Part shown: piece by piece, positions 18,001-56,458 of the stretch
How positions within the stretch are numbered: position 1 is the stretch's first letter
How the letters are laid out: every line of letters begins with the position of its first letter
NCBI GenBank assembly: GCA_046563655.1
Contig: JAJCTO010000013.1
Span: 248,001-312,000 of the forward strand
Origin: Yuukianura sp. NJ FZ-2021
Lineage: Eukaryota
Direction: 5' to 3'
DNA length: 64,000 nt
Notes under the pieces: model-generated
The model's input: only the letters and a program-made list of their open reading frames with translations
What the model was told of the DNA's origin: nothing
Database searches by the model: none
Translations under genes and position numbers: made by a program

Positions 18001-18073
18001 GGTATAAACTAATGTGGGAACTATACAACGAAGTTTTAAACATACTGAAAATTGGAATTTATGCCTTGTTATT
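1..18073. repeat. ~508-bp tandem satellite array, block 1 (~35.5 monomers; continues beyond the window start)
   Basis: The same ~508-bp unit (cggcaatggaacttcagggg...aatgactcaga) recurs every 506-509 bp. ORF-track starts at 247, 755, 1263... confirm the period. Confidence 0.98.
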
Positions 18074-19131
18074 TGAAACGGGGTGATTTTCTTATGCTCC
18101 ATTGTTGCGTAAACCTAACACAAATACTATCCTTTGATTGTCCTCTGAAAACAACCAAACAGCTAATTGCAACAGCATAGCGGGTCTAACACCCGTCCCA
18201 CCCTAATTGACCTGACAACTTGACCCCTCTGGGTCCCTGGATTCTAGTTAGCTCAATGACCTGAGTGGACCGTACTTCAGTCCCACTCCCTACCCTACCT
18301 TCCACTCTTTAGGTGGGGCCGGTCCCACCCGACCCACATCACCTAAGTGTCTCAATATGCTCGTCTAGCTACCCTTATTAAATCATGTTTGAGAAGGGAA
18401 GATTCCCTTACCTTGGTCAGCTACGGTTGACACCAGTCGAACCCTGGACAGCAGAATCAGCGGAAGTGACGGTGGCAGATGTGCAAGCTCTCGAAGACGA
18501 GGAATTGACGATCGGTGAAGAGAATTCCCAGGAAGAGTGTTTATTGTTCCCAAAAAGACTTATTCTAAAGAGCAACTTTACAATCTAGCCAACTGATCTA
18601 AGAGAGAGAGATTCTTCCCCAAAAGCTAATTTAAAAATGACTTAACGCTAACAAGTTGCTACCTATATTTATAACCTCGCGCTTGACCCAGCTTGTCCTT
18701 CAACTGAGGGACGCTTAGAGACCTGAGTTCAAAGTTGGACGTTAATGACCAGGATCTCAGGTCCAGCTTTGTCATTAATGTCCAAGATTGAACAAAGTTA
18801 CGAGCCTATGCAAATTGATAAAACAGGGATTTTGAATGGGAAAATCAACTCTCTTGCGAGTGGACACCCCATGTTTGACAGATGTCAAACTTGCTGAGCA
18901 AGTTGTTTTACATGACAAGTCCAAAGGACTTGTCAAATCACCTTTTTCTTATCATAAGTCTTGAGACCTCCTGTCTCAATTTCCCAACTTTCCTTAATTA
19001 TCAATTTGCATACTCGACATGTCTCTTACCCGGTTTTAACTAGTTTTGTCTTAACTTAATTAGCCGTCCGAATTCGGCCCAACTTCAAATCAATTGATTG
19101 ATTTGGAGATGGCTCAAAATCCGACGTTACA
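18074..19131 (-). repeat. 3' LTR of element 1 (1058 bp)
   Basis: Near-identical to 26992-28048; I see one substitution (tttaggtgg vs tttacgtgg) and one 1-bp T indel. The PPT lies adjacent. Confidence 0.95.
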
Positions 19132-19145
19132 TTATTCCCCAACTT
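19132..19145 (-). other. Polypurine tract of element 1
   Basis: Minus strand reads AAGTTGGGGAATAA immediately before the TGT start of the 3' LTR. Confidence 0.7.
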
Positions 19146-20073
19146 GTTCTAATCTACGTCCTCGTAGATTTCCTAATTATGCAACAGAGTATCCTGACAT
19201 AATGGTTAAGGTATTCCGATCTACAAATTTGATGACATGGATTTGAAGCCTGAACTCATAAATGGATAACATAGAACTGTTCTACCCGAATTCAACATAG
19301 TATAATATTGATGTAACAATAGCCAAGGTTGAAATAAACTTATCATCATGAGTGAAAGCTAGCTTAAAAGAATGTTAAGAGAATTCCAATGGGTGTTTGG
19401 GACATTGGGTCTGCCTTGTCAGAGTAGTGGATGAATGCAAATGGATGCGTAGTTCTCTGCCCATTGGTCTCGTACTGTGGTCTCACCATGTGATGCAAGC
19501 TTTCAACTTTCGTTTTCTAGTGATGAAATTTGTCTGCGCTACTCCGAATCCTCACCGGAAGTTCTCAGTGGAGTCGTTGTAGTTTCAGCGATAATTACTG
19601 TAACGGGAAGTTGAGTCGTCCTCATCACTCATGAACGCTTCTGGTAAACTCTCATTGAGTTCGTTTGGGTCTCTGGGATATCCTGAGGACTGTGAGCGTC
19701 CGTGTTGACTTGATTTCCGTGATTTAACGTACTTCCGTGAGTTGAGAGGTGATCAAGTTTTCCACAAGGACTTCGTTGCTTAGCGCGGCATTATTGACCT
19801 TTTGCTCACAGGAGTTCGAACTTGATCAAAGCTACGTCGTACTCCAGCGCCCAATAGGACGATGATGTTGCAAATCAGACTGTAGTGATGTGTCCAGATT
19901 GGAACACATGAATGGGATGCGTTGGAGCTTCATTCTTCCCTTTTATTCTCTTATGGTTAAGTTTGTGAATATGTATTATGATTAATTTCAATGAATAACA
20001 TCGACCGCTTATTATCTACTTATGATTACAAATTTTAGTAACATTACTCTTAGAGGACACATTTCTAAGTGAT

Positions 20074-20958
20074 TTAATAGTTATGTGGAAACAGATTACT
20101 TCGAGGTCGTAGTTCGTAATCCTCTCTGGATTTGTTTTTAACATGGTTGATCAATTCTTCTCGAATTGGTAAACCATGATTTCGATAACCTTCGAGTGTC
20201 TTGGCCAACAATCGAAACGATGATTTAGCCTCACATTCGAGTAAGTCAATACAAATCATATCCCTGTATTTGAAATAATAACTGGGTGGATATATTTGAT
20301 AGTGTAGACAAATGTCTTCGATGTCTTTGGTATTTAACTGTGTGAAAAAGTTTTTCCGGATCGCGATTTGGCTCTGACGCCGATCTCCTAATTTCTCAAT
20401 GTACTGCAAAACTGGAAATAATTTTCCTTCTGGGAAAATTATACGTTTGCATTTGCCGAAGTCAATTGGCCTTGGGGTAAAAGATCTTCTAGTGCGCGAA
20501 CTAGAAGGGATGATGAGGAGATTAGATTTGATTATTCCAAACCACACCTTCTCGGCACATGTTGGACGTGGGACAATTTCCTTTGTCCTTGGAAGTTCCT
20601 GAACTTCCTCAAACCCAAATTCCTGATAATTTTGACAAACAATTTCGGCAATTCCCTGACCTCGTTTTATAACGCGGTCCTCAATGTCATGGGAAAATAA
20701 TGTAATTTGTATAGGCTCGCAACGCTCTTGTCCGATAAATTCCATTTTTACGTTAATTAAATTACCTAACTGCTGGGAAGGGACAATGCAACCAAAAGTT
20801 CGTTCCGGAACTTCTACTTGAATAAATGTATTTATGACTGCTTTCCCTTTTGCTGGAAGTGCAGTATCAAAGGGGCATGAAAACGTAAATCCTGGCAAAG
20901 TTGCGGAAGTTTTTCGTAAAGGCAACGCTGCCCATGAATGTCGCTTGTATCTCAGCAT
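20074..20958 (-). CDS. Degenerate dUTPase-like N-terminal domain fused to an uncharacterised C-terminal domain (294 aa)
   Basis: The N-terminal ~120 aa follow the trimeric dUTPase layout (LPLRKT..PGFTFSCP..LPAKGKAVINTFIQVEVPERTFGCIVP..IQITLFSH..IKRGQGIAEIVC). Catalytic motifs (AGxDL, RSG, GvID.DYrG, motif V) are altered or absent. Confidence 0.7.
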   Translation of the reverse strand: MLRYKRHSWAALPLRKTSATLPGFTFSCPFDTALPAKGKAVINTFIQVEVPERTFGCIVPSQQLGNLINVKMEFIGQERCEPIQITLFSHDIEDRVIKRGQGIAEIVCQNYQEFGFEEVQELPRTKEIVPRPTCAEKVWFGIIKSNLLIIPSSSRTRRSFTPRPIDFGKCKRIIFPEGKLFPVLQYIEKLGDRRQSQIAIRKNFFTQLNTKDIEDICLHYQIYPPSYYFKYRDMICIDLLECEAKSSFRLLAKTLEGYRNHGLPIREELINHVKNKSREDYELRPRSNLFPHNY

Positions 20959-20996
20959 TCTCGAGGTTATTTACTCAAATCTCTTCTCCTTTTGCG

Positions 20997-21695
20997 TTAA
21001 AGGAATTCCCAGAGTGCAATATCTAGCCACTCGTCCGTTACCTCTAATCCTCGCTGTATATAATGTCTCCTAGCGCGTTTTCGTGCTCTGCGTTGAGCGA
21101 CAGTGAATCCAGCTAAGTAAATCGGAAGTTCCTCAGCATATATCTTTTCTAAATGAGACGCTAGGTCCTCTCTGTCGTTTGTGTAAAGACGGATTTGTTT
21201 GGCTAATGTTAGGAAGCGGTACGGTTTGGGTCTAGGACCGATGGGAACAAACGTACAGTATTCTCGGAAACTATAAAACTCGTCTCTAAATTTGCGCAAT
21301 ACTCTCTCTAATTCTTCTGGAGAGAAGGTTACTACAGCTTGCCAGTGAAGTTGAATGGGTTGATTGAAGTCTAAGATAAATTGGCTTAGCGCGACAGGAA
21401 ATGCGTTAAGTGGTACGTTTGATAGGAAGTTTTCTATTTTAGTTTGACTATCATGATCAATTTTTAGTATCCCAATATTATATCCTGGTTTTAGTACAAC
21501 AACGTTATCAAATATAAATTTTTGTTTTGCGCGAACTTCTCTTTTTGTTGCTTCTACAAACGCTAATAGACTTGGGTAAACCTCAGTGATGTTGCTTATG
21601 TCCTGTAGACAACAGAACTGGAAAATCTTACCCAATGCAAGCTCTGGTAACTCGTAGAGTTGGATGGCTGCAGGTTTCTGCGTACCACAGTTCAT
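20997..21695 (-). CDS. Putative F-box-like protein (232 aa from the first ATG; the frame is open further upstream)
   Basis: LYELPELALGKIFQFCCLQDISNITEVYPSL lies ~12 aa after the Met and matches the F-box pattern L..LP.E.L..IF..L...D....V. The ORF track uses a TTG start at 21818. Confidence 0.55.
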   Translation of the reverse strand: MNCGTQKPAAIQLYELPELALGKIFQFCCLQDISNITEVYPSLLAFVEATKREVRAKQKFIFDNVVVLKPGYNIGILKIDHDSQTKIENFLSNVPLNAFPVALSQFILDFNQPIQLHWQAVVTFSPEELERVLRKFRDEFYSFREYCTFVPIGPRPKPYRFLTLAKQIRLYTNDREDLASHLEKIYAEELPIYLAGFTVAQRRARKRARRHYIQRGLEVTDEWLDIALWEFL

Positions 21696-22642
21696 GTGAT
21701 CGTGGCTGTATATTCCCCTGGATGGTTCCAAATTTTTGTATTCTCCAGGCTCGGTTTCTGATACGCGAGTTGGCAATCGCACGCGCCAGCACTGGAAGTC
21801 GTCTGGATAAATTCTCAAGCGAGATTTCCTTGATAACCTAAAATCGTTATGTTTCTGACGAATATGATTAATAGTTTTTGAATCTACACGACTACTTTTG
21901 ATTTCTTTCTGACCATTTCTCTGTTCCAGACCTAACGTAGTCGAACATGTTTGATATATCTCCTCCTAAGCATTCGGCTAAGTTTGCGTCAGTTACGCGT
22001 AACCAAAAATTCATTGTAATTCTATGAAACCTAACACATGTAAACAGCAGTGTGTGTTTTGTTCACGCTAGTTTCTAATGCTGATGTAAGTGGAACAGTA
22101 GGCGACTGATGACTGATGACTGTGTATAATAGTTGAGTATAACTAGGCGATGACAATAAACTCAAATTCCTACCTTATCAGTTGTTTCCTATACTTAAAC
22201 GAATGCTAAACGCAGTTGCTTTAAGAAATGTCTTCATAAGAGAAAACAGTAAACTAAACATCAGTGATTCAGTTCTTGACTGGAGTCGAGGTACTTCATT
22301 CTTTCTGGTGACCCTAATGTCTATGGCCAATCTTATGTCAACAGTATCACCATTATTTTAAATTTTATAAATTCGAACTAAGATTAATGCACCAAATTTC
22401 GATTTCTATTGCTCATCTAATTTTGAACTTGGAAAACCAAAGGCTTATTATCTGTGGCCCCGTTGGTTATTTTAATTCAGTATGTGGTATTATTACCATT
22501 CGAACGATTGCATCTCGAAACTATCTACTTTTATCACACACTTCTAACTTTTCAAAAAAAAAAATTATTGGCTGCCAACACACTACTTGAGTGCCTTCCC
22601 CAACTTCGTCTGCTGCTACTCCTGGAGCAGCGGTTGTCGTAG

Positions 22643-23317
22643 TTAAGCGGAGTCTTGCTTCCTGTTCATCATAAATTCGTAGTCTTCTTTTTGAATGAGA
22701 ATGTCAACGACATCTTGAGGAGTTTTCGGCTGACGAAGAAAGACCTCATAACTTTCGTCTGGATTTAGACCTTTCAATAAATATTTGATGCGTTTCTCGT
22801 TTTTCATAACAGTTCCCTGACTCTTGTCTAGTTGGTCGCACAAGCGCATGATCTTGCTACAATATTCTTCGATACGGACGTTCTTCCCTCGTCGCATCTG
22901 GGCGAGTTTATGTTCAAGGGCGTCTTCGGTGAGACGAGACTTAAAGTCCAGCTGAAAAGCTGCCTCAATTTTAGGCCATGACAATGGCACTTTCTCACCG
23001 TCGTCATCAATGTTGGCTGGATCCCTTTTCCAGTCCGTGCAGTAATTCAGCCACCAAGTCTTGGCGTATTTGGTAAGATAGAGCGGAAAATGGGTGACCT
23101 TCGCAGCGTCATCCCAGTGCTGCGAAGCGGCGACCGCCTTAAACGTTTGCATAAAATTCGTAGCTGGTGTTCCCCGTTTCCCTTCAAACATGGGGTCACC
23201 CGGTGGGGTCCACACGGAAACAAACACGTTCCCAGTTCCTATAGGTGGCACTAATGCCATTGGGCCAGGGCCACTCCCTCCTGGAGTCCCTGCACCGGTT
23301 TTGTCCGGATCGCTCAT
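22643..23317 (-). CDS. gag: Ty3/gypsy Gag capsid protein (Arc-like, both CA lobes, no nucleocapsid zinc knuckle), 224 aa
   Basis: Typical retrotransposon gag motifs: PMFEG..NFMQTF..WDDAAKV..LYLTKYAKTWW..SWPKIEAAFQLDF..KLAQMRRGKNVRIEEYCSKIMRLCDQLD..KRIKYLLKGL..PKTPQDVV. Confidence 0.88.
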   Translation of the reverse strand: MSDPDKTGAGTPGGSGPGPMALVPPIGTGNVFVSVWTPPGDPMFEGKRGTPATNFMQTFKAVAASQHWDDAAKVTHFPLYLTKYAKTWWLNYCTDWKRDPANIDDDGEKVPLSWPKIEAAFQLDFKSRLTEDALEHKLAQMRRGKNVRIEEYCSKIMRLCDQLDKSQGTVMKNEKRIKYLLKGLNPDESYEVFLRQPKTPQDVVDILIQKEDYEFMMNRKQDSA

Positions 23318-23825
23318 GGAGCCTTAGATGGTTCCCGTTAAGTCGAGACTTGGGAACTACTTCTCTCCCGTTTAGAAGTTGGAAGTAAAATAAGACGATC
23401 AGACCTGCCCACCTTCGTGGTCGTACTAGTGTGCTGGCTTTTCCTTGCCACACGATCGTCCTTCACAGTGGATTGGATGGAGGTTGAACTGTGTCAACCA
23501 GTACCGCTGGTATAGTAATGATGTCTGGATTCGTTGGAGTGGTGCTTGACCCTGCTTGTGTGCCTGAAGTGACTTCCTCCGCTCGATTCTTAGGATACTT
23601 CGACTTAGACCGATTGTCCTTCAGCACCGAATCCAGTACAGTAAACGAAAATTCCGGTGTTCCTCGTTCTTTCTTTTCCCTGAACCGGAATCACCAGTAC
23701 TCGTGCCCTCAAATTAGGCACAGTACCTTAATCAAAATAATACCATGAGTTCACTCATGTGACTCGATAATTAATCTCGGAAATTCAAAACATGGATTTT
23801 TTTTTTACTACTTTTAATTGGATAA

Positions 23826-25187
23826 TTAACAGAATGAATTCCAATTGGTAATCTGTGCAATCAGTGAAACCATTACACTGAGAATTGCCTGAGTGAGTGA
23901 CCCTATCTCGGCTGCCCCGGCAGTCGGGTCATTCTCTTCGGACTCACAATTAAATTTCAGGAACTCTGCTAACCGACAATATCGTTGGAGTCGGAAGTTC
24001 CAATCATAGTCTATAATATAGCTATATTCTAGTGAAGAGAATCCTAAGCGGTACTCGACAAAGCTAACGATGGGTGCACGAACTTGACTTAATCGTGCAG
24101 GGTATTCGACTTTATCCTTGGGAAACAATTTCCCCTGAGAGTGGTAGTAACCTAGCCATGTGCCATTGACTTGTAAATACAAGTCCCTTCTGTGCGTTAT
24201 CACTCCGGTAATCGGAGTTGAAATTCCTAATTCTTTGGTTCCTAATGGGTACCCTTGCTCTAGTAGGTTGGTGAAATATTTCCAATATTGCCCGTTAGTA
24301 AAAATGTAAACAAAATCATCGAACAAAAAGATTTTGTTGATCTTAGTATTTTCTGGAAAATGTTGATAGTATTGAAAGTTGGTTATGAATCTGGGGTAGC
24401 TAAGCTTGCCTGATTTCTCCACTTGGTAATGTCCAAAACCTTGGAACAGGAAATAGACATTGTTCAATTGGTATGCGTGTTCGATATGATCGCTGCATAC
24501 AGCTGTGCTAAGTTGGTTTTGGACTTCCTTCTGTTCGGCATCAATTTGAATTCCAAGCTGAGTTTGTTCATATAGTTTGTCAAGGGCTTGTCTATCTACA
24601 ATGTCTAATTTTAGTTTAGGGTCCCGTAATTTGTACCAAGGGTACATGATAGAGCTATTCTCTGAAGTGTGGGTAAGCCCCAGAGCATGACCCACTTCGT
24701 GTAACATTACAGTGTATAGGTTAATGCCAGTGGCATTAGAACCAGTCACCCAATTTTCAGATGCATCTAAATGTATATGACTTCCTAGTCCCTCGCTAGG
24801 ATAAGATGCGTGGCCTAGGATACCACTCTCAGCATCAAATGGCTTAGAATCGTTATGATCAAATTTCACAAATTTGATTTGAATCTCTACATGTGAGTCA
24901 TCGGGCTTATGAACAAAAGTCAAATTGGAAACTTCGTTCCACCTAGATAAGGCTAGCCTAACATCGGCACTAGCATCTACTTCCCCGATTTCCAAGGGTA
25001 CATCTTGTATGGTCCATCCTAACTGAAACGCTGACCACATCCTTGGGTTGAACACGCGACGCTTCGTTTTCAGATTGTCTGTGGGGTCATCCTCCCAACA
25101 TCGGATGGCTCCGTCTTCTTCTCTCACGAGTACGGATCCTGTAGCCATCAGCGTTAGCGTCGTAAAAAGTAAAGCGTATGAAGACAT
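23826..25187 (-). CDS. Secreted matrix metalloproteinase (peptidase M10A) with hemopexin-like C-terminal region and hydrophobic tail, 453 aa, intronless
   Basis: Hydrophobic N-terminus MSSYALLFTTLTLMATGS; KTKRR furin-like site; structural Zn/Ca region HNDSKPFDAESGILGHASYP..HIHLDASENW; catalytic HEVGHALGLTH (~24669-24701); Met-turn SIMYPWY; hemopexin-like YFLFQG../YPRFI../VYIFTNGQYWKY../GYP repeats. Confidence 0.95.
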   Translation of the reverse strand: MSSYALLFTTLTLMATGSVLVREEDGAIRCWEDDPTDNLKTKRRVFNPRMWSAFQLGWTIQDVPLEIGEVDASADVRLALSRWNEVSNLTFVHKPDDSHVEIQIKFVKFDHNDSKPFDAESGILGHASYPSEGLGSHIHLDASENWVTGSNATGINLYTVMLHEVGHALGLTHTSENSSIMYPWYKLRDPKLKLDIVDRQALDKLYEQTQLGIQIDAEQKEVQNQLSTAVCSDHIEHAYQLNNVYFLFQGFGHYQVEKSGKLSYPRFITNFQYYQHFPENTKINKIFLFDDFVYIFTNGQYWKYFTNLLEQGYPLGTKELGISTPITGVITHRRDLYLQVNGTWLGYYHSQGKLFPKDKVEYPARLSQVRAPIVSFVEYRLGFSSLEYSYIIDYDWNFRLQRYCRLAEFLKFNCESEENDPTAGAAEIGSLTQAILSVMVSLIAQITNWNSFC

Positions 25188-26972
25188 TTCTTCGCTCCTT
25201 TTCTTCTTCTCCTGGAAGGTTACGTTTGGAGTGAATACCCCTCCTTCAATCCTTGAAGGTAGAATCTACTTAATGCTAGATCCTAACACCCCTGGCAAGG
25301 TCTCCTGCAGTAGGTTCAGTCCCCTCCCAGTCCAAAATCTCGAGGTAAATTACAATAAGGCTCCCTTCCTTGAGCATGGGGTGTATTTGTCAACTTATGT
25401 GACATCATCAGTGAGATAGATGGCCTATCGGACTGGCTAGGTCCGGGCATGATGCTCCATGGACTGGGATCTGACCTTGAGTTGACGACAACTCTATGAA
25501 AATTTCTAAAGCCATTCTTCAGAGGGGCTGTGGTACCCTGCCCCTTCGCATCACTAGCGTTCTAAGGAACAGCTGCAGAGACTTGACCTTCTCCCTGTTC
25601 TTAACTATGCTAAGTCCATTGGTCTCAGGCGGAACCTTCGCCACCTCCGGACCTAGCGCGGTATCCTGTTGTCTAGATTCTAGCTTATGTCCTACCTAAT
25701 AGCAAGTTTCAGCTGGTCATGACTCCAGCGTCCGCAAGTGTTCGGATTATCCTTCGACTAAGAGCAGTCATGGGGCATTCTCGCCAAATACCATGACCCC
25801 GGTCAAACATACACCAGTTGCTAAGGGTCTACCTCTTGACCCCGACTTGTCCCTAAAGGCGGGAAGCATCAAGTCCTTACGAGGACTCGGACCTAAAGCT
25901 ATTGTCCTTAAACAGTACTACATAGTCACAAGGTCTATCCTCCCTCGTGACGAAGTCATTTTTAAATTTTCGCAAATTGAGCGAAGGCTCCTCCCTTCAC
26001 TCTACTTTAAGTGTCGACTAACTGTAGGAAGGGTTCCCCCCTTCCACTCTACTCTTTAATTATGAAGTGAAAGTTTTGAGAAGAAAAGAAACAGAAGAAA
26101 GCTAAACGGGTTTCCGTCATTATTTTAAATTCAGTCTTAGAAACTTGTATGAGATCAGTAGATGATTACATTGTAGGGGTATAGTTACTTCTATACCAAA
26201 AGCTGTTGAGGTCTAGAGAGGTCATAACGTCAAAAGCCTTTTTCTAAATGCGAATTTACGTTAATCCTGTCTATGTTTGAAAAGACACTAAACGAAAAGA
26301 TAAATTGAAATTTTGAAACATTGAAAAATTGAAACTAAATTCGAAATTCAAAAATTTGTCATTGCATCTCCATGCATGAATTCTACTAGTTTGAATTTTG
26401 AGTGTTCGCGCCGAAATTCTGTTCAAAATTTTAATGAAACTTGTATAGTAGTTAATTAACTTATTATGACTTCTTCAGGGATTAATCAGACGTTATGCAA
26501 TTGTACTTTATTGAAATGAATCAAATCATATCAAATCAGCTGATAATTTTATGAAATATGAGTTTGCTAAAATTTGCACTATTTTTCGGCTTTTCGCAAA
26601 AACAGAATTATGAAATAGGAAGAGCATTAGATGTAACACATGAAACTTTAAAAATTTTGCTTAGAACTGACTACTGAACTGCAAGAAGATAAGACTTGAT
26701 GTTCGTCCATACATCCTACTTTAAATTTTCAAAATTTAAATTTTCGCGCCAAAAGTCATTCTTCAAAAGTTCTTCAGAAATGTGAAAGAGGACTTGCCAT
26801 TTAGGCTGTGGGCTATAGACCTACCCTTGCAAATAGTAAAAATTTTCAAATTCAAATTTTCCCGCCAAAGCGAGTTTCAAATTCTAAGAGCTGCTTTCTC
26901 CAGACGTTATGTTAAACGTTATTCTAGTTGACCTCGCTTGACCTTAAGTGAATCTAGGGACTATACAGAAGG

Positions 26973-26990
26973 ATCTCAGTAGAACCTCCA
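26973..26990 (-). promoter_or_regulatory. Primer-binding site, tRNA-Gln type
   Basis: Minus strand TGGAGGTTCTACTGAGAT starts 1 nt after the 5' LTR. It is complementary (two G-U pairs) to the conserved metazoan tRNA-Gln 3' end ATCTCGGTGGAACCTCCA. Confidence 0.8.
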
Positions 26991-26991
26991 T

Positions 26992-28048
26992 TGAAACGGG
27001 GTGATTTTCTTATGCTCCATTGTTGCGTAAACCTAACACAAATACTATCCTTTGATTGTCCTCTGAAAACAACCAAACAGCTAATTGCAACAGCATAGCG
27101 GGTCTAACACCCGTCCCACCCTAATTGACCTGACAACTTGACCCCTCTGGGTCCCTGGATTCTAGTTAGCTCAATGACCTGAGTGGACCGTACTTCAGTC
27201 CCACTCCCTACCCTACCTTCCACTCTTTACGTGGGGCCGGTCCCACCCGACCCACATCACCTAAGTGTCTCAATATGCTCGTCTAGCTACCCTTATTAAA
27301 TCATGTTTGAGAAGGGAAGATTCCCTTACCTTGGTCAGCTACGGTTGACACCAGTCGAACCCTGGACAGCAGAATCAGCGGAAGTGACGGTGGCAGATGT
27401 GCAAGCTCTCGAAGACGAGGAATTGACGATCGGTGAAGAGAATTCCCAGGAAGAGTGTTTATTGTTCCCAAAAAGACTTATTCTAAAGAGCAACTTTACA
27501 ATCTAGCCAACTGATCTAAGAGAGAGAGATTCTTCCCCAAAAGCTAATTTAAAAATGACTTAACGCTAACAAGTTGCTACCTATATTTATAACCTCGCGC
27601 TTGACCCAGCTTGTCCTTCAACTGAGGGACGCTTAGAGACCTGAGTTCAAAGTTGGACGTTAATGACCAGGATCTCAGGTCCAGCTTTGTCATTAATGTC
27701 CAAGATTGAACAAAGTTACGAGCCTATGCAAATTGATAAAACAGGGATTTTGAATGGGAAAATCAACTCTCTTGCGAGTGGACACCCCATGTTTGACAGA
27801 TGTCAAACTTGCTGAGCAAGTTGTTTTACATGACAAGTCCAAAGGACTTGTCAAATCACCTTTTCTTATCATAAGTCTTGAGACCTCCTGTCTCAATTTC
27901 CCAACTTTCCTTAATTATCAATTTGCATACTCGACATGTCTCTTACCCGGTTTTAACTAGTTTTGTCTTAACTTAATTAGCCGTCCGAATTCGGCCCAAC
28001 TTCAAATCAATTGATTGATTTGGAGATGGCTCAAAATCCGACGTTACA
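26992..28048 (-). repeat. 5' LTR of element 1 (1057 bp)
   Basis: Minus strand TGTAACG...TTTCA followed by the PBS. Contains minus-strand TATAAATA (27584-27591) and, downstream of it, AATAAA (27458-27463). Confidence 0.95.
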
Positions 28049-31000
28049 TATTGCGTCTAACCATCTTCATGGAACGCATCTAATACCGGTCCACTTTGTC
28101 GTAGTGCATCAACGACTATTACACACGGTAAACCACTTGTTGTCAGCATTCATCTTTGAGCACAAAGGAGGAGTGCCGGTGAAATGACAAGCTCGTCCTC
28201 ACTACAGATACCAACCAGTACTCATTTTGACACTATGAATCACAATGACTCAGACGGCAATGGAACTTCAGGGGAAATCCCATTATTACATTGTCTAAAT
28301 CAAAATGAAACATTCCGCATTATTTGTTATCTTGATTAGAATTTTTAGGAAATAATTTTTTATGTCATACTACCACCTTGCACTTCCAATAAAGCACAAC
28401 TGAATAACTGGTGTTCAACAACAATCTGGAATTATATTTTAGCCCAACTCCACTATGCAACAAGTGCATAAATCTAACTGTCATTTTGGTATAAACTAAT
28501 GTGGGAACTATACAACGAAGTTTTAAACATACTGAAAATTGGAATTTATGCCTTGTTATTGCTTCTAACCATCTTCATGGAACGCATCTAATACCGGTCC
28601 ACTTTGTCGTAGTGGATCAACGACTATTACACACAGTGAACCACTTGTTGTCAGCCTTCATCTTTGAGCACAAAGGAGAAGTGCCGGTGAAATGACAAGC
28701 TCGTCCTCACTACAGATACCAACCAATACTCATTTTGACACTATGAATCACAATGACTCAGACGGCAATGGAACTTCAGGGAAATCCCATTATTACATTG
28801 TCTAAATCAAAATGAAACATTCCGCATTATTTGTTATCTTGATTAGAATTTTTAGGAAATAATTTTTTATGTCGTACAACCACCCTGCACTTCCAATAAA
28901 GCACACCTGAATAACTGGTGTTCAACAATAATCTGGAATTATATTTTAGCCCAAGTCCACTATGCAACAAGTGCATAAATCTAACTGTCATTTTGGTATA
29001 AACTAATGTGGGAACTATACAACGAAGTTTTAAACATACTGAAAATTGGAATTTATGCCTTGTTATTGCGTCTAACCATCTTCATGGAACGCATCTAATA
29101 CCGGTCCACTTTGTCGTAGTGCATCAACGACTATTACACACAGTGAACCACTTGTTGTCAGCCTTCATCTTTGAGCACAAAGGAGAAGTGCCGGTGAAAT
29201 TACAAGCTCGTCCTCACTACAGATACCAACCAATACTCATTTTGACACTATGAATCACAATGACTCAGACGGCAATGGAACTTCAGGGGAAATCCCATTA
29301 TTACATTGTCTAAATCAAAATGAAACATTCCGCATTATTTGTTATCTTGATTAGAATTTTTAGGAAATAATTTTTTATGTCATACTACCACCTTGCACTT
29401 CCAATAAAGCACAACTGAATAACTGGTGTTCAACAATAATCTGGAATTATATTTTAGCCCAACTCCACTATGCAACAAGTGCATAAATCTAACTGTCATT
29501 TTGGTATAAACTAATGTGCGAACTATACAACGAAGTTTTAAACATACTGAAAAATGGAATTTATGCCTTGTTAGCGCTTCTAACCATCTTCATGGAACGC
29601 ATCTAATACCGGTCCACTTTGTCGTAGTGCATCAACGACTATTACACACGGTAAACCACTTGTTGTCAGCCTTCATCTTTGAGCACAAAGTAGAAGTGCC
29701 GGTGAAATGACAAGCTCGTCCTCACTACAGATACCAACCAGTACTCATTTTGACACTATGAATCACAATGACTCAGACGGCAATGGAACTTCAGGGGGAA
29801 TCCCATTATTACATTGTCTAAATCAAAATGAAACATTCCGCATTATTTGTTATCTTGATTAGAATTTTAGGAAATAATTTTTTATGTCGTACAACCACCC
29901 TGCACTTCCAATAAAGCACACCTGAATAACTGGTGTTCAACAATAATCTGGAATTATATTTTAGCCCAACTCCACTATGCAACAAGTGCATAAATCTAAC
30001 TGTCATTTTGGTATAAACTAATGTGGGAACTATACAACGAAGTTTTAAACATACTGAAAATTGGAATTTATGCCTTGTTATTGCGTCTAACCATCTTCAT
30101 GGAACGCATCTAATACCGGTCCACTTTGTCGTAGTGCATCAACGACTATTACACACGGTAAACCACTTGTTGTCAGCATTCATCTTTGAGCACAAAGGAG
30201 AAGTGCCGGTGAAATGACAAGCTCGTCCTCACTACAGATACCAACCAGTACTCATTTTGACACTATGAATCACAATGACTCAGACGGCAATGGAACTTCA
30301 GGGGAAATCCCATTATTACATTGTCTAAATCAAAATGAAACATTCCGCATTATTTGTTATCTTGATTAGAATTTTTAGGAAATAATTTTTTATGTCGTAC
30401 AACCACCCTGCACTTCCAATAAAGCACACCTGAATAACTGGTGTTCAACAATAATCTGGAATTATATTTTAGCCCAACTCCACTATGCAACAAGTGCATA
30501 AATCTAACTGTCATTTTGGTATAAACTAATGTGGGAACTATACAACGAAGTTTTAAACATACTGAAAATTGGAATTTATGCCTTGTTATTGCTTCTAACC
30601 ATCTTCATGGAACGCATCTAATACCGGTCCACTTTGTCGTAGTGCATCAACGACTATTACACACGGTAAACCACTTGTTGTCAGCCTTCATCTTTGAGCA
30701 CAAAGGAGAAGTGCCGGTGAAATGACAAGCTCGTCCTCACTACAGATACCAACCAATACTCATTTTGACACTATGAATCACAATGACTCAGACGGCAATG
30801 GAACTTCAAGGGAAATCCCATTATTACATTGTCTAAATCAAAATGAAACATTCCGCATTATTTGTTATCTTGATTAGAATTTTTAGGAAATAATTTTTTA
30901 TGTCGTACAACCACCCTGCACTTCCAATAAAGCACACCTGAATAACTGGTGTTCAACAATAATCTGGAATTATATTTTAGCCCAACTCCACTATGCAACA

Positions 31001-46000: not shown

Positions 46001-47737
46001 TTTGACACTATGAATCACAATGACTCAGACGGCAATGGAACTTCAGGGGAAATCCCATTATTGCATTGTCTAAATCAAAATGAAACATTCCGCATTATTT
46101 GTTATCTTGATTAGAATTTTTAGGACATAATTTTTTATGTCATACTACCACCTTGCACTTCCAATAAAACACAACTGAATAACTGGTGTTCAACATTAAT
46201 CTGGAATTATATTTTAGCCCAACTCCACTATGCAACAAGTGCATAAATCTAACTGTCATTTTGGTATAAACTAATGTGCGAACTATACAACGAAGTTTTA
46301 AACATACTGAAAAATGGAATTTATGCCTTGTTATCGCTTCTAACCATCTTCATGGAACGCATCTAATACCGGTCCACTTTGTCGTAGTGCATCAACGACT
46401 ATTACACACGGTAAACCACTTGTTGTCAGCCTTCATCTTTGAGCACAAAGGAGAAGTGCCGGTGAAATGACAAGCTCGTCCTCACTACAGATACCAACCA
46501 GTACTCATTTTGACACTATGAATCACAATGACTCAGACGGCAATGGAACTTCAGGAGAAATCCCATTATTACATTGTCTAAATCAAAATGAAACATTCCG
46601 CATTATTTGTTATCTTGATTAGAATTTTTAGGAAATAATTTTTTATGTCGTACAACCACCCTGCACTTCCAATAAAGCACAACTGAATAACTGGTGTTCA
46701 ACAATAATCTGGAATTATATTTTAGCCCAACTCCACTATGCAACAAGTGCATAAATCTAACTGTCATTTTGGTATAAACTAATGTGGGAACTATACAACG
46801 AAGTTTTAAACATACTGAAAAATGGAATTTATGCCTTGTTATCGCTTCTAACCATCTTCATGGAACGCATCTAATACCGGTCCACTTTGTCGTAGTGCAT
46901 CAACGACTATTACACACGGTGAACCACTTGTTGTCAGCCTTCATCTTTGAGCACAAAGGAGAAGTGCCGGTGAAATGACAAGCTCGTCCCCACTACAGAT
47001 ACCAACCAGTACTCATTTTGACACTATGAATCACAATGACTCAGACGGCAATGGAACTTCAGGGGAAATCCCATTATTACATTGTCTAAATCAAAATGAA
47101 ACATTCCGCATTATTTGTTATCTTGATTAGAATTTTTAGGAAATAATTTTTTATGTCGTACAACCACCCTGCACTTCCAATAAAGCACACCTGAATAACT
47201 GGTGTTCAACAATAATCTGGAATTATATTTTAGCCCAACTCCACTATGCAACAAGTGCATAAATCTAACTGTCATTTTGGTATAAACTAATGTGGGAACT
47301 ATACAACGAAGTTTTAAACATACTGAAAATTGGAATTTATGCCTTGTTATTGCGTCTAACCATCTTCATGGAACGCATCTAATACCGGTCCACTTTGTCG
47401 TAGTGCATCAACGACTATTACACACGGTAAACCACTTGTTGTCAGCATTCATCTTTGAGCACAAAGGAGAAGTGCCGGTGAAATGACAAGCTCGTCCTCA
47501 CTACAGATACCAACCAGTACTCATTTTGACACTATGAATCACAATGACTCAGACGGCAATGGAACTTCAGGGGAAATCCCATTATTACATTGTCTAAATC
47601 AAAATGAAACATTCCGCATTATTTGTTATCTTGATTAGAATTTTTAGGAAATAATTTTTTATGTCATACTACCACCTTGCACTTCCAATAAAGCACAACT
47701 GAATAACTGGTGTTCAACAATAATCTGGAATTATATT
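28049..47737. repeat. ~508-bp satellite array, block 2 (~39 monomers)
   Basis: The array resumes in register after the TATT TSD with the same monomer. Block-enriched variants include gtgcgaact, ttagcgct, ttaacgct and aaaattgg. Confidence 0.98.
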
Positions 47738-48100
47738 TGTAACGCCTCGACGTCACGGTCAGCCATGTGTAACGCCCTACGACGCTAAACAACTGAAAAA
47801 CACAACTGGAGCAAACACTGCCGCTCCGCACCAGACTACTCTCTGAGTCCGCAGACTCTCAGACCCAAATGACCCCAAACAATCACCACTGCTCACAACT
47901 ACATCGGCGAATAAATGTATGAAATATATTTATTCGTCGAGAATAAAATATATACAACAAACCTCCGTCTCCCGCAGAGACCAAAAACCAACTAAACTAA
48001 ACTAACTGAATCTCTCTCTCTACCACACCGTATCTCGAATCTCCCGCGGCTCATCTCCGCAACCTAACCTAACTAATCGCCGGAGTAGCAGACGCCAACA
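47738..48100 (-). repeat. 3' LTR of element 2 (363 bp)
   Basis: Direct repeat of 50600-50966. Adjacent 48101-48111 is a purine tract on the minus strand. Confidence 0.95.
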
Positions 48101-50587: not shown

Positions 50588-50597
50588 ACGGTCGCCA
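50588..50597 (-). promoter_or_regulatory. Primer-binding site, tRNA-Arg type
   Basis: Minus strand TGGCGACCGT starts 2 nt after the 5' LTR and is complementary to the tRNA-Arg(TCG) 3' end ...ACGGTCGCCA. Confidence 0.75.
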
Positions 50598-50599
50598 TG

Positions 50600-50966
50600 T
50601 GTAACGCCTCGACGTCACGGTCAGCCATGTGTAACGCCCTACGACGCTAAACAACTGAAAAACACAACTGGAGCAAACACTGCCGCTCCGCACCAGACTA
50701 CTCTCTGAGTCCGCAGACTCTCAGACCCAAATGACCCCAAACAATCACCACTGCTCACAACTACATCGGCGAATAAATGTATGAAATATATTTATTCGTC
50801 GAGAATAAAATATATACAACAAACCTCCGTCTCCCGCAGAGACCAAAAACCAACTAAACTAAACTAACTGAATCTCTCTCTCTCTCTACCACACCGTATC
50901 TCGAATCTCCCGCGGCTCATCTCCGCAACCTAACCTAACTAATCGCCGGAGTAGCAGACGCCAACA
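50600..50966 (-). repeat. 5' LTR of element 2 (367 bp)
   Basis: Direct repeat of 47738-48100, followed on the minus strand by the PBS. Confidence 0.95.
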
Positions 50967-52516: not shown

Positions 52517-55500
52517 TCAAAGTAAGTAGATTTCGTAGAGTTCTTTCCCGGGAGGCAGTGTTCCCAGTATTGAAGCGGTGTTACCTCTTTGTATGGCGAT
52601 GCTTACGCGCTGAAGTAAAAAAGAAGTTGCTCGATTGTCTCCAGTTGATTCAGAAATTCGATGTCCAATGGATTTCAGAAGACGTAGTCCTTCATCACCA
52701 AACACACCCGAGGTCTCGACAGCTATAATGGAAACAATAAATCGTTTTTCGAGGTCGCGATAGATGTTGTGTTTGTGGATTTCGGCTAATGAAGACGGAT
52801 GGCCAAGCGAAGAGGAAGAAGTTGGAAGGTAGGAAGCTGCATAGGTATCCCGACAAGTGAAATCCCACACCAAACAACGCCCAGTCTTCCATGGGATGAG
52901 CGTCATGCCGTCTGGCCGTTTTCCATCTGCTCTTGAACATCCGGATGGTTCTTTAACGTTTGGTATGCCAGCTGAATGCAAAGCTCTGGAAATGATGTCG
53001 TTGATGGAGCCATGTCTAGAGTTTCTACCGGCGCTTCGAATGCAACTTAAGCCGTGTAGGCCGTCACTCGACACTGAAGTTCCACATTTGCAACGATGAG
53101 GCTGGCATACATTGGAGCCTAGGCGAAGACAGCAAGAGATTCTGAATGTTTCGTCAGAGAGTAGAGTTCCAAGCGGAGAGGAGGGAATCGCATGCAGCCA
53201 ATCGCCTGAGTGAGGGGCGGTTGCGGCCAACAATCGTGCTTTGTCAATCAGAGTGTTGCAATTTTCAAGCAGAGAAGTATAAATACGTTTGAAGATGATC
53301 GTTTCCCAAAGATTTTGTATTTTTGCGTCGTGAGGTGTTTCGAGACCCAATAGTGACCAATTGAGAGAAGCAAGGTCCAAAGAATTGTCGAAAGGAGAGA
53401 GATGTGGCGGAAGAAAGGCGGAGATAAGGTCGGCACAACTATTTACTGAGGCCAAAAATGAAAATGTAGCACAGTCCGTAGCGTGTCGTACACCCAAACC
53501 ACCTTGGTTCACAGGTAAGGAAGATTGTAGCCAGGCTTCATCGGTCAAGTGTGTGTTAATGATGGATTCCAAAACGGCGCGTAAGGATGAGTCGTAGGAT
53601 TGGAGAAGGTCAGTTTCTAGGAATGACGGCGAACATCTGAGAAAGTACAACAGTCTTGGTGTCGATATTGAGGCCCTGAGCAGGAAAAAAGCAACATGCG
53701 CAGGCAGGTAGGAAAGTCTGGAAGAGAGTTTCTTGAAGTCTTCAGTTTTGGATTGAAGAATTCGACGAGAAGAGTCCTTGAAGAGCGGAGCTCCCAGAAG
53801 TTCAGATTGGCAGTTGTTGGGAAAGACAAAATCTTGTGAAACTGAACGGAAGGAGTTGGAGATAGAGTGTGTTTCAGTTTGATCCGCGGCAAGAATGATG
53901 ACTTCGCATTTTTGCAAGTTAAGATGTAATCCAAGAGAGGAAGCATGGGATTGGATGATCTTGAGATTTGACAGCACAACATCTGGGGTATCAGCGATGG
54001 TGGCGTCATCTAGGTACCAAGCATTGAATTCTGTTGTCAACGACGAGGCTAACGGATGTATTGTTAAGGCAAACAGTGCTGGTCCTAGGGGATCCCCCTG
54101 CTGCACGCCTAGTTTGGACTTGAAACAACAGGAATCGTAGAAAAGATCAGAATCATGTAAGTAGGCTTGAGAGATAAAGTTGAAAAACTCGGGAAGGTGT
54201 TGTTTCACAGCGTCAAGCATCTTGTCTCTTCTAAGGAGATTGAAAGCGTTCCGAAAATCCATCTTTAGTAGAACCTTTGGTGAGGAGTGATTGGCGTTGC
54301 AAAAAATCCTAGCGGCATGGGCGACAGCTTCTGCTCCATTTTTGACACCGACACCAACTTGGATTGGACTCAAGACGGACGAAATGACATTCATTGAACG
54401 ATACAGGATCAGTTTCGAGACGAGGCGTCTCCACGTGAGGCCAACGGCAATTGGTCGGATTCCGCCCTTCTTCTTCTGAATTGCGATGAGAGATGCCCCA
54501 AAAAAGATTGGTCTGATGTCATCGGGAAGAGATCCATTTGAAATGAGGTTACATAGTTTTGAAATTGATGACAGGAGTCTTGAACCGGCGTCACCTGCTG
54601 ATTTGGAGATTAGCTCCTTCAAAATTTGAGGACGAAGGGAGTCCAGGCCGCCAGAGGAACCATTCGGGAAGGAAGAAACGCGTTTCTGGAAGTCAATGTC
54701 TTCGAAAACAGCTTCTTCTGATGTTGGAGGATCCGGAAAAGTGGTGGGTTGAGGATGTGCAGGGTGTAGTTGACTGAGAGCTTCAATAGTGGTGGAGTCA
54801 ACAGCAGCCAAGTGGTCATCTGAGCAGAGGATTCTAATGGCTCCACTAACGTCACCGTCTGCAACTTTGGATTGGACTAGATTAGAGTTGTTCCACAGTT
54901 GTGAGTTCTGATTGGAGCGTGGATGATGACATGTTGGTGGTAGTTCAAAATTACTTGCATTGTCGACATTTGATTTCACCCATGTGGTCAAATTTGTAAC
55001 GCGATCATCTTTAGTCGGAAGCTGGAAAGCGGCGTATCGAAAAATTAGAAGTTTCTCCCATGATTCTGATGTATTTTCGACAACTACTTCTTCGATGATG
55101 ATGGATAGTTTTGATGCAGCTACTTGTCTTGCTCCCTTTGGAATGTGCTTTAGGGTTTGAACCGAATTTCTCAAATCAGCGAAACGAAGTCCTAGGGGAA
55201 GCTTATTGGATGATTCTGTCGAGGGGTTAGACCATGTTACACCGACGTAGGATTGTCCGCTGTGTTTTCGTCCTCCAGCCCGTGTTTTGGTGACGTCGGG
55301 AAAGATTTCTAGGAGTTTGGTTCCAATTGTGGCGTCAGCAAGGGGACGAATCTGAATCGACGAGCAGAAACTGTGATACTTCTCTTTAAAGTCTTGTTTC
55401 TTGATCATTCCTCCGGAGCATAGTCGCATGTTGGAACAAATCCAGTTGTCAGTTATCTTTGAGATTTGTGATTTGGAATGGTTATTGGAGGCATTGGAGA

Positions 55501-56179
55501 CGCGTTGGTCGCTGGCTGGAACTGAGTGAGGACAGGAAGGGTCTTCGTTGGATGCAGGAACGGACGAAGAAGAGGAGAGAGAGAGATTTGATGCTCGAAA
55601 TGAAGATAAAGACAAACTGGAAGCATCTTCGTTGGGAACAGGAATTGACGACGAACAGGAAGCAATTTCATTGGTAACAGGGACTGTTGACAAACTTGAA
55701 GCATCTTCATTGGTAACAGGAACCGACAATAGACTGGAAGCATCTTCATTGGGAACAGGAAAAGACAACAAACTGGAAGCATCTTCATTGGTACCAGGAA
55801 CAGTTGACAAACTGGAAGCATCTTTATTAGTAACAGGAACCGACAATAGACTGGAAGCATCTTCATTAGGAGCAGGAACAGACAACAAACTGGAGGCATC
55901 TTCATTTGGAGCATCAACTGGCAACGAACTGGAAGCATTTTCATTGGTAACAGGAACTGAAGATGAACTGGAAGCAATTACAATGTTAGGCGATGAAAAA
56001 CTTGAGGTGAATGCATTGACGACTGGGTCTGATGGAAAACTAGAAACGGCATTGTTGGATGTAGGAACTGTTGAAGATATCAATTTCACTTTTGGAGCTG
56101 AAGAGGATTCAGGAGAAGGAGAAATTGCGATGGACGATGATTTCATTTTACTTCTGTTTTTTAATTTCCGTTGAGGCAT
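52517..56179 (-). CDS. Polyprotein: Ser-rich repeats, RFX-like winged helix, reverse transcriptase, CCHC knuckle, RLE endonuclease (1220 aa)
   Basis: RT motifs KKKGGIRPIAVG, MDFRNAFN, GVQQGDPLGP, WYLDD; zinc knuckle CKC..HGLSC; RH..IND; RLE KRPDG..WDFTCRDT..E..K; CRE-typical C-terminus QRVSIAIQRGN. Confidence 0.95.
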   Translation of the reverse strand: MPQRKLKNRSKMKSSSIAISPSPESSSAPKVKLISSTVPTSNNAVSSFPSDPVVNAFTSSFSSPNIVIASSSSSVPVTNENASSSLPVDAPNEDASSLLSVPAPNEDASSLLSVPVTNKDASSLSTVPGTNEDASSLLSFPVPNEDASSLLSVPVTNEDASSLSTVPVTNEIASCSSSIPVPNEDASSLSLSSFRASNLSLSSSSSVPASNEDPSCPHSVPASDQRVSNASNNHSKSQISKITDNWICSNMRLCSGGMIKKQDFKEKYHSFCSSIQIRPLADATIGTKLLEIFPDVTKTRAGGRKHSGQSYVGVTWSNPSTESSNKLPLGLRFADLRNSVQTLKHIPKGARQVAASKLSIIIEEVVVENTSESWEKLLIFRYAAFQLPTKDDRVTNLTTWVKSNVDNASNFELPPTCHHPRSNQNSQLWNNSNLVQSKVADGDVSGAIRILCSDDHLAAVDSTTIEALSQLHPAHPQPTTFPDPPTSEEAVFEDIDFQKRVSSFPNGSSGGLDSLRPQILKELISKSAGDAGSRLLSSISKLCNLISNGSLPDDIRPIFFGASLIAIQKKKGGIRPIAVGLTWRRLVSKLILYRSMNVISSVLSPIQVGVGVKNGAEAVAHAARIFCNANHSSPKVLLKMDFRNAFNLLRRDKMLDAVKQHLPEFFNFISQAYLHDSDLFYDSCCFKSKLGVQQGDPLGPALFALTIHPLASSLTTEFNAWYLDDATIADTPDVVLSNLKIIQSHASSLGLHLNLQKCEVIILAADQTETHSISNSFRSVSQDFVFPNNCQSELLGAPLFKDSSRRILQSKTEDFKKLSSRLSYLPAHVAFFLLRASISTPRLLYFLRCSPSFLETDLLQSYDSSLRAVLESIINTHLTDEAWLQSSLPVNQGGLGVRHATDCATFSFLASVNSCADLISAFLPPHLSPFDNSLDLASLNWSLLGLETPHDAKIQNLWETIIFKRIYTSLLENCNTLIDKARLLAATAPHSGDWLHAIPSSPLGTLLSDETFRISCCLRLGSNVCQPHRCKCGTSVSSDGLHGLSCIRSAGRNSRHGSINDIISRALHSAGIPNVKEPSGCSRADGKRPDGMTLIPWKTGRCLVWDFTCRDTYAASYLPTSSSSLGHPSSLAEIHKHNIYRDLEKRFIVSIIAVETSGVFGDEGLRLLKSIGHRISESTGDNRATSFLLQRVSIAIQRGNTASILGTLPPGKELYEIYLL
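55540..55985 (-). repeat. 39-bp coding minisatellite (13-aa unit SVPVTNEDASSLL, ~10 copies)
   Basis: The ggaagcatcttcatt motif recurs every 39 bp (~55620-55970) inside the CRE-like ORF. Confidence 0.85.
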
Positions 56180-56458
56180 ATCAGTCGTTATGGCGATGAG
56201 GTCACGGGTTCACGGAGTTGTTGAAAACTTTGAGCGTTGTTGATGCGCGAAGTGTGACTGGACGTCCGAGTGACGAAACTGGTCCGGAAAGGATGAAATG
56301 GTGACGTATCTTCCTGAAACCTGTCACAAGTTGATCAGCAAACGAAGCTCTTTCGGATGATATAAGCAAAAGTTGGATAGATTATGAATTAATGCTTTAA
56401 AAACTGTGAAAATGAGGAGCAAAGATTTCGTGTTTTCACTTTTTGTTGATCAATAAAT

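Follow-up and report, generated by a model that had tools for sequence, protein, structure and literature searches.

A putative non-autonomous Ty3/gypsy-type retrotransposon with a matrix metalloproteinase gene directly upstream of gag

How does a retroelement without a polymerase come to carry an intact gene for a matrix metalloproteinase (MMP), and does this gene belong to the lineage of the element or was it picked up as cargo? The question is raised by a long terminal repeat (LTR) element of 9,975 bp found at positions 18074–28048, on the minus strand, of a 64-kb stretch of DNA from Yuukianura sp. NJ FZ-2021 (contig JAJCTO010000013.1, positions 248,001 to 312,000). This whole stretch is called the window, and all coordinates refer to it. 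We consider it likely that the element, young and non-autonomous, belongs to an undescribed Ty3/gypsy lineage, in which a membrane-anchored MMP bearing a furin-type site is encoded directly upstream of gag. As judged from its sequence, the element would be of a known kind (non-autonomous, Ty3/gypsy-type), and what appears to be new is the conserved MMP upstream of gag together with two orphan open reading frames (ORFs).

By structural class, the element is an LTR retrotransposon, with direct LTRs, TG..CA ends and a target duplication. All its long ORFs are on the minus strand and the right-hand LTR is therefore the 5' LTR (26992–28048, 1,057 nt), the left-hand copy being the 3' LTR (18074–19131, 1,058 nt). 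The two LTRs are 99.72% identical over 1,064 columns, with one mismatch and two gap openings, and on the plus strand each of them opens with TGAAACG and closes with CGTTACA. Each also contains TATAAATA (27584–27591 in the 5' LTR, 18666–18673 in the 3' LTR) and, about 125 nt downstream, the hexamer AATAAA (27458–27463 and 18540–18545, respectively). The tetranucleotide TATT adjoins the element at both ends (18070–18073 and 28049–28052). Both flanks match adjoining positions of a satellite unit, and the register of the satellite shifts across the element by 10,487, i.e. 508 + 9,975 + 4, which indicates a clean insertion into one 508-bp unit with a 4-bp target duplication. A primer-binding-site (PBS)-like tract that begins with TGG, TGGAGGTTCTACTGAGATCC (26971–26990), lies 1 nt past the 5' LTR, and a purine-rich, polypurine-tract (PPT)-like sequence, AAGTTGGGGAATAA (19132–19145), adjoins the 3' LTR; both have the right form and stand in the expected places on the minus strand. 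An AT-rich leader follows the PBS-like tract (26302–26970; GC content 0.318 over 26302–26990, PBS-like tract included). Over the whole window, ARAGORN detected no tRNA gene and Rfam gave no match at its gathering thresholds.

Four intact, intronless ORFs are found on the minus strand, in the sense of the element and in the order MMP, gag, ORF3 and ORF4. By chance, the interior of 7.9 kb would contain stop-free runs this long only 4e-4 to 1e-10 times. To search for pol, we used the stop-to-stop frames of at least 35 amino acids (aa) on both strands of 19133–26990 (98 of 101, the frames of the three main ORFs being scanned separately). No RVT, rve, RVP, RNase H, zf-CCHC or env family was detected at E ≤ 1 in these 98 interior frames. 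Furthermore, tblastn against the element with the nucleocapsid (NC), protease (PR), reverse transcriptase (RT) and integrase (IN) sequences of relatives returned only the capsid region; the queries were taken from the closest Gag (both its N-terminal and its C-terminal part), the PR/RT frame of the metagenome contig L001 described below, two gag-pol polyproteins and the RT of locus L009. The PR-RT-RNase H-IN order of Ty3/gypsy Pol is thus absent, and for want of Pol the element is filed as a non-autonomous derivative and not as a complete member of the Metaviridae. It does not fit the gag-only (TR-GAG) definition either, as three further intact ORFs stand beside gag. No ORF of the errantivirus env type was recognised, no env family being present in any scanned frame, and the sole membrane protein is the MMP, 5' of gag. 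Structurally intact and young as it is, an element without pol would have to be mobilised in trans. A preliminary description of this DNA had proposed a recent insertion with near-identical LTRs and a target duplication, four uninterrupted sense ORFs in the order MMP, gag, third ORF, dUTPase-like, the lack of protease, RT and integrase, and dependence on Pol in trans; our results agree with it on all these points. Its further proposals, a PBS of the tRNA-Gln type, effectors that manipulate the host and a helper sharing the LTR ends and PBS, are tentative.

The first ORF (25187–23826, minus strand) encodes an MMP of 453 aa that matches Pfam Peptidase_M10 with an E value of 8.8e-43 (146.4 bits). 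From its N-terminus, the protein shows a hydrophobic signal-like segment, a cysteine-switch-like motif (RCWEDDP, residue 29), a furin-like motif (KTKRR, residue 40), the catalytic zinc site HEVGHALGLTH (residue 163; nt 24669–24701) with the Met-turn SIMYP (residue 179), a hemopexin-like region (18.3 bits, under the cut-off of 21.3) and a hydrophobic anchor at the C-terminus. Its best PDB matches are MMP-20 (5.7e-29) and MMP-16 (1.3e-26), and the structural-zinc histidines, the zinc site and the Met-turn are all visible in the alignment to MMP-20. The protein therefore has the HExxHxxGxxH motif, the Met-turn and the structural-zinc histidines that define a matrixin (MEROPS M10A / PF00413). When it is aligned with a cellular-type MMP (P0001), RCWEDDP falls on the cysteine switch PRCGVPD and KTKRR on the RVKR-type site. 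The usual PG-binding prodomain of about 80 aa is missing, and the signal peptide stands almost directly before RCWEDDP. To judge by these features, the MMP looks functional. In a database of 5.8 billion sequences, the single-sequence search gave just two distant matches and the profile search four; cellular MMPs are 26–32% identical to the window MMP, and no MMP from outside such elements was found above 32%. A tract on the minus strand that begins 7 nt past the stop codon (23797–23819) consists of AATTAAA (23813–23819) followed by ten A (23797–23806), and could represent a site similar to a poly(A) signal or else a relic resembling a poly(A) tail.

The second ORF (23317–22643, minus strand) encodes a Gag of 224 aa with a capsid of the Ty3/gypsy type. 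It matches Retrotrans_gag (1.5e-10; 41.6 bits for a cut-off of 24.1) and Ty3_capsid (1.1e-7; 32 bits for a cut-off of 29.1), which places it among the Ty3-type Gags. Among 1.84 billion representative sequences, 160 relatives were found at E ≤ 1e-3, the closest being P0003 (610 aa, about 50–52% identical) and P0004 (185 aa, 55%). P0003 has about 250 additional N-terminal residues and a C-terminal CCHC knuckle, and the contig encoding P0004 (L002) holds a frameshifted gag that likewise ends in a CCHC knuckle. Since the window Gag has neither the long N-terminus nor the knuckle of these relatives, it corresponds to the capsid domain alone, as the preliminary description had it. The gag profile found no match among the viral contigs of IMG/VR.

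We used the Gag profile to scan JGI metagenome contigs, which gave 10 loci. By tblastn with the window proteins, Gag was found in all 10 and the MMP in a single one, L001 (4,435 nt), the contig that encodes P0003. This contig begins inside an MMP ORF (nt 2–1297) whose product is 34% identical to the window MMP over 409 aa (E 3e-76). The L001 MMP matches Peptidase_M10 at 2.9e-47, passes the hemopexin cut-off with 25.1 bits and has a strongly hydrophobic, transmembrane-type segment at its C-terminus. The 610-aa Gag begins 49–70 nt past the MMP, leaving no room for an LTR between the two genes. A third frame, overlapping the end of gag, shows the protease motif DTGA and then the N-terminal part of an RT, where the contig stops; in BLASTP, this frame matches the PR and pre-RT region of the gag-PR-RT protein P0041 at 5e-4 and 5e-11, and the PR-RT frame matches a foamy-virus PR-RT of the PDB at 2.1e-8. 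The window and L001 MMPs are each other's best match (251 bits over 410 aa vs. at most 119 bits to four other MMPs), with H111, D113, H126, H139, H163, E164, H167, H173 and M181 invariant between them. Directly after the MMP stop codon, L001 has AATAAA, the counterpart in the window being AATTAAA and the ten A. No LTR pair was detected in the 6 of the 10 loci L001, L003, L004, L006, L007 and L010. As L001 presents MMP, gag, PR and RT in the same order, the linkage of MMP and gag appears to be inherited from a Ty3/gypsy lineage of autonomous type, and the MMP would predate the pol-less copy instead of being cargo acquired by it.

This bears directly on another explanation, according to which a pol-less, satellite-virus-like element captured MMP, F-box and dUTPase genes as cargo, the source being either host mRNAs or a large DNA virus. 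In its favour are the four intronless, co-oriented ORFs and the AATTAAA with ten A past the MMP stop, which is reminiscent of a retro-copied mRNA. Against it stand the MMP-gag-PR-RT arrangement of L001 and the reciprocal best match of the two MMPs. Moreover, the MMP profile found a single locus among the 2.9 million viral contigs of IMG/VR (L011, on a contig of 102,759 nt), and the L011 protein, 27% identical over residues 63–318, is no closer to the window MMP than cellular MMPs are. Two points of the preliminary description, the MMP as cargo of a satellite element and the link to large DNA viruses, are therefore not retained.

The two remaining ORFs give this explanation some support and some difficulty. 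ORF4 (20958–20074, minus strand; 294 aa) matches Pfam dUTPase at 3.4e-8 over residues 20–126, and residues 2–126 or so would adopt a dUTPase-like fold (PF00692, 33.8 bits for a cut-off of 22). It matches 27 dUTPase sequences of the PDB at E ≤ 1, the best being those of shrimp (7dlv, 1.2e-13) and Drosophila (3ecy, 3.5e-12), whereas that of equine infectious anaemia virus (1duc) reaches merely 0.04. The best solved relatives are thus cellular arthropod enzymes, as capture would have it. ORF4 also matches dUTPase clusters by ESM-Atlas features (score 0.93), while with TIGR00576 it obtains 30.9 bits for a cut-off of 102.55. dUTPases are recognised by five catalytic motifs, among them motif III with its aspartate and motif V at the C-terminus, and relative to 7dlv those of ORF4 are degenerate: AGFDL is replaced by PGFTF, PRSGL by PSQQLG, GVIDRDYRG by EFIGQERCE and GDRVAQL by GQGIAEI, and the match stops before motif V. 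Residues 127–294 (168 aa) have no Pfam match at E ≤ 10. ORF4 would therefore be a dead dUTPase fold joined to a C-terminal domain without detectable family, in line with the pseudo-dUTPase first proposed. An origin of ORF4 from a pol-borne dUTPase was also considered and rejected: it has no similarity to the linker between PR and RT in L001, and this linker is itself without a Pfam match.

ORF3 (21695–20997, minus strand; 232 aa from the first ATG) belongs to no Pfam family. Even at E ≤ 10 Pfam gave nothing, NCBIfam and the PDB sequences likewise yielded no match, and a search of proteins of 127–406 aa in the word-indexed database of 5.8 billion found no homologue. The F-box profiles (PF00646/PF12937) do not recognise it. 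By eye, it shows an LPxE..IF..L..D pattern resembling the F-box consensus, and its ESM-Atlas features resemble those of nematode F-box clusters with a score of 0.93 and 136–151 shared features (true members typically share 170). ORF3 is possibly F-box-like, solely by these language-model features, and its identity as an F-box protein is not confirmed. Its frame remains free of stops for 90 more codons upstream of the ATG (21696–21965; P ~0.003), and the protein may be longer or be reached by splicing, frameshifting or a non-ATG start. ORF3 and ORF4 are separated by 38 nt and lie in different frames. Neither had a match in the IMG/VR viral contigs, which argues against a viral source of the cargo, or by tblastn in the 10 related loci.

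Then, we examined other copies of the element in public sequencing runs, from assembled Logan contigs, which mix copies and alleles and whose word depths are not copy numbers. Of the sampled words of the element, 63–76% occur in three runs from a single sample (organism A) and 10% in one run (X4) of another study (organism B). In organism A, the interior is fragmented into contigs of about 250–450 nt with variant letters at 967 places, of which 40 are listed. Run X2 has a contig of 3,842 nt that spans 19191–23030 with 20 differences and 2 gaps, and on which gag, ORF3 and ORF4 stand together without pol; further contigs of this run cover 23090–24158 and 24138–25330. In addition, Logan contigs bridge the boundary of 3' LTR and interior, gag and MMP, and MMP and leader. 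A contig of 2,778 nt with a word depth of 146x matches 24784–24884 and 24991–25107 with 16 and 19 differences and then jumps to 26731; it appears to represent a diverged (~83% identical) and abundant relative of the 5' part of the MMP in the same genome. The contigs of organism B are 90–95% identical to the element. They leave the MMP core (23874–24673) and most of ORF3 (21074–21873) without cover, and the uncovered part is evidence neither way. The family is thus multi-copy in its source organism, as expected under the preliminary description, and pieces of it occur in a second one.

Some copies lack exactly the block that contains MMP and gag (22564–26301). A joint of 22563 to 26302 was found with word depths of 82.6 and 61.3 in run X1 and 6.4 in run X2. 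At the 3' edge of this block, there is a run of 11 T on the element strand (22554–22564), and its part upstream of the MMP looks non-coding (25188–26301, minus strand; GC 0.449). The GC content of the block is 0.446, compared with 0.318 in the leader and 0.391 in the rest of the interior. The joint was also considered as a splice and rejected, because the element strand does not continue with GT after 26302 and 5–9 unmatched letters stand between the two sides. These copies may have lost the block by deletion, or the window copy may be a recombinant in which an MMP-gag module joined an ORF3-ORF4 backbone. A block that differs in GC content and is missing from some copies is again compatible with cargo capture, which we nevertheless regard as unlikely in view of L001 and of the viral contigs.

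About as improbable is the explanation by which the element is a dead-end deletion derivative, with MMP, ORF3 and ORF4 as inert passengers that are useless to it and are intact merely through youth. LTRs that are 99.7% identical would have left too little time for decay, and the loss of the catalytic motifs in ORF4 and of NC from Gag would suit such an element. However, the catalytic and structural residues of the MMP have been kept between window and L001 although the Gags are only about 50–52% and the MMPs 34% identical, which points to long-term purifying selection. The variant places tell the same way: 16 of the 40 listed fall in ORFs, and 10 of these 16 are synonymous, where ~22% would be expected (P = 6e-4 from the binomial distribution; with an expected share of 30%, P = 0.007). 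This excess, from a small and non-random sample, hints at purifying selection. Furthermore, ORF4 retains ~92% nucleotide identity in organism B, with 5 of the 8 listed differences synonymous. Lastly, it is hardly credible that the structure is a chimera of the assembly or a cluster of host genes between two solo LTRs: the region does lie in a long satellite array that is hard to assemble, but the exact ends, the 4-bp duplication, the preserved satellite phase, the well-placed PBS-like and PPT-like tracts and the Logan contigs that join its parts all contradict it, these contigs being weak as independent support since the organism A runs are possibly from the sample of the assembly itself.

Several observations weigh against our reading of a non-autonomous element from an MMP-bearing lineage. 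The MMP-gag-pol arrangement is known from one relative only, the metagenome contig L001, which is truncated inside both MMP and RT and shows neither LTRs, nor an integrase, nor a counterpart of ORF3 or ORF4. As ORF3 and ORF4 have no detectable relatives, their tie to the MMP-gag lineage is tentative. The copies without the MMP-gag block and the contrast in GC content may mean that the window copy is a recombinant and not a simple deletion derivative. Finally, the selection signal comes from 16 of 967 variant places, 40 of which are listed.

Known systems resemble this element in part. The TR-GAG elements of plants have LTRs, PBS, PPT and gag without pol and are mobilised by an autonomous partner, and the same applies to BARE2. 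The window element shares with TR-GAG elements the LTRs, the PBS-like and PPT-like tracts and a gag without pol; unlike these elements, which have gag alone, it carries three further ORFs, its Gag is devoid of NC and its MMP points to an animal-type host. Virus-encoded matrixins are known in betabaculoviruses (granuloviruses), where the MMP may help the virus to spread by breaching basement membranes. The MMPs of such large insect DNA viruses and that of the window are both matrixins, and we found no evidence of a shared origin, the nearest relative on a viral contig being L011 (27%). With membrane-type MMPs, the window protein shares the HExxHxxGxxH motif, the Met-turn, the structural zinc and calcium ligands, the furin-type site, the hemopexin-like region and the C-terminal anchor. 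It differs from them by the missing PG-binding prodomain, by being encoded inside a retroelement and by its identity of at most 32% to non-element MMPs.

In the literature covered, which did not extend to Repbase, subscription journals and supplements, no paper connects LTR retroelements with any MMP or matrixin, and the initial remark that no LTR retrotransposon with an MMP is known holds within that scope. In the accessible text of the work on bdelloid rotifers, the LTR retrotransposons Vesta, Juno and TelKA carry captured enzymatic ORF3s, and TelKA2n is a non-autonomous family without the gag C-terminus and most of pol (PMC5408684). The extra ORFs there stand 3' of pol and encode a GDSL esterase, a DEDDy exonuclease or env-like proteins, and three lineages carry a dUTPase as a domain of pol; 'metallo' and 'F-box' do not occur in that accessible text (PMC5408684). 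As far as this text goes, the window element is similar in being of Ty3/gypsy type and in having modular additional ORFs for enzymes or membrane proteins, and different in that its dUTPase is a separate degenerate ORF fused to an unknown domain and its MMP is 5' of gag. The accessible part of a preprint on Drosophila describes two small ORFs, sORF1 and sORF2, upstream of gag in elements of the MDG1 group (412, Stalker2), with a poly(A) site predicted between the upstream ORFs; the membrane protein sORF2 drives the transfer of capsids from soma to oocyte in these env-less elements (bioRxiv 10.1101/2025.03.14.642691). In so far as that part of the preprint shows, the window element likewise has an accessory gene for a membrane protein upstream of gag, a likeness of position and topology for which no relation in sequence would be expected. 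sORF2 is FAST-like, about 70 aa long and non-enzymatic, whereas the window gene encodes a zinc protease of 453 aa with a hemopexin-like region.

From these comparisons we infer how the element may function. An autonomous relative would supply Gag-NC, protease, RT and integrase in trans, the element moving only in this way, and the LTR, PBS and PPT that it has kept would serve its RNA. The capsid-only Gag would probably co-assemble with the Gag of the helper. The MMP would be a transmission factor encoded by the element and anchored in the membrane of the producing cell, where, by analogy with the MDG1 group, it would open a passage through basement membrane or extracellular matrix for capsids on their way to the germline. 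ORF3 and ORF4 would be lineage-specific accessory proteins, which may act together, possibly against a host restriction system; viruses are known to hijack ubiquitin ligases, and the suggestion rests on this analogy. The window copy could have arisen by an internal deletion of NC and pol, or by recombination of an MMP-gag module into a backbone with ORF3 and ORF4. A bolder version, which we find possible but doubtful, is that of a Metaviridae clade in which a furin-activated MMP, membrane-anchored and encoded upstream of gag, replaces or supplements the envelope as infectivity factor, cutting basement membrane for the passage of capsids from somatic into germline cells. This clade would spawn satellite members that retain the MMP and a capsid-only Gag, live on the Pol of a helper and use their pair of F-box-like and dead-dUTPase proteins to redirect host ubiquitin ligases to a factor of restriction or silencing.

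Other loci with a related gag also contain additional ORFs. In L003 (2–3525), a gag 33% identical to that of the window is followed within ~190 nt by an intronless frame of the vinculin family, which a single frameshift interrupts (Pfam Vinculin, 9.4e-73 and 4.1e-36 at contiguous profile positions); neither protease nor RT was seen in L003, which may be a further element without pol that captured a cDNA of its host. Co-oriented ORFs with BTB and ubiquitin domains (L004, 1710–3088) lie 3.2 kb upstream of a related gag, and L006 (3–4036) presents an integrase C-terminus, then ORFs of 776 and 221 aa without Pfam family, then gag and protease. Relatives in this gag clade may often carry extra ORFs.

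Nearly the whole window is filled by the tandem satellite, with units of 507–508 bp and ~37% GC. Most of the 300-nt copies compared are 97–100% identical, and some units near 16–17 kb are 79–82% identical. Three independent retroelement insertions interrupt it at different positions of the unit, the element at 18074–28048 being one. Another, at 52517–56209 (minus strand), is a non-LTR retrotransposon with an open frame of 1,230 aa that matches RVT_1 (2.3e-17). An RFX DNA-binding domain (4.1e-9) precedes RVT_1, which seems unusual for a long interspersed nuclear element, and by eye a CCHC motif and a restriction-like endonuclease region are found at the C-terminus; the N-terminal part contains 39-nt tandem repeats (55612–55976). 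The third insertion (47735–~50934) has perfect direct repeats of 287 nt (47735–48021 and 50597–50883), and the sequence past each repeat, beyond a CT run, is also duplicated. From their fourth base, these repeats read TGTAACG, the same 7 nt that open the LTR of the main element on its own strand. The stop-to-stop ORFs of the third insertion (547 and 151 aa) belong to no Pfam family, and at the threshold applied its DNA did not resemble that of the main element.

LTR retroelements are known to acquire envelope genes and some enzymes, and small membrane proteins encoded upstream of gag have recently been found to mediate spread between cells without an envelope. If our reading is right, an MMP conserved at this position in two distant elements would add a new type to the accessory genes of retroelements, and it suggests that capsids could get to the germline by proteolysis of the extracellular matrix, a route open to testing. 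From the pol-less copy one would learn what such a lineage keeps of its genes once it has become a parasite of its relatives, and the two orphan ORFs could have new functions in counter-defence. The sequences of MMP, gag, ORF3 and ORF4 provide handles with which invertebrate genomes can be surveyed for this lineage.

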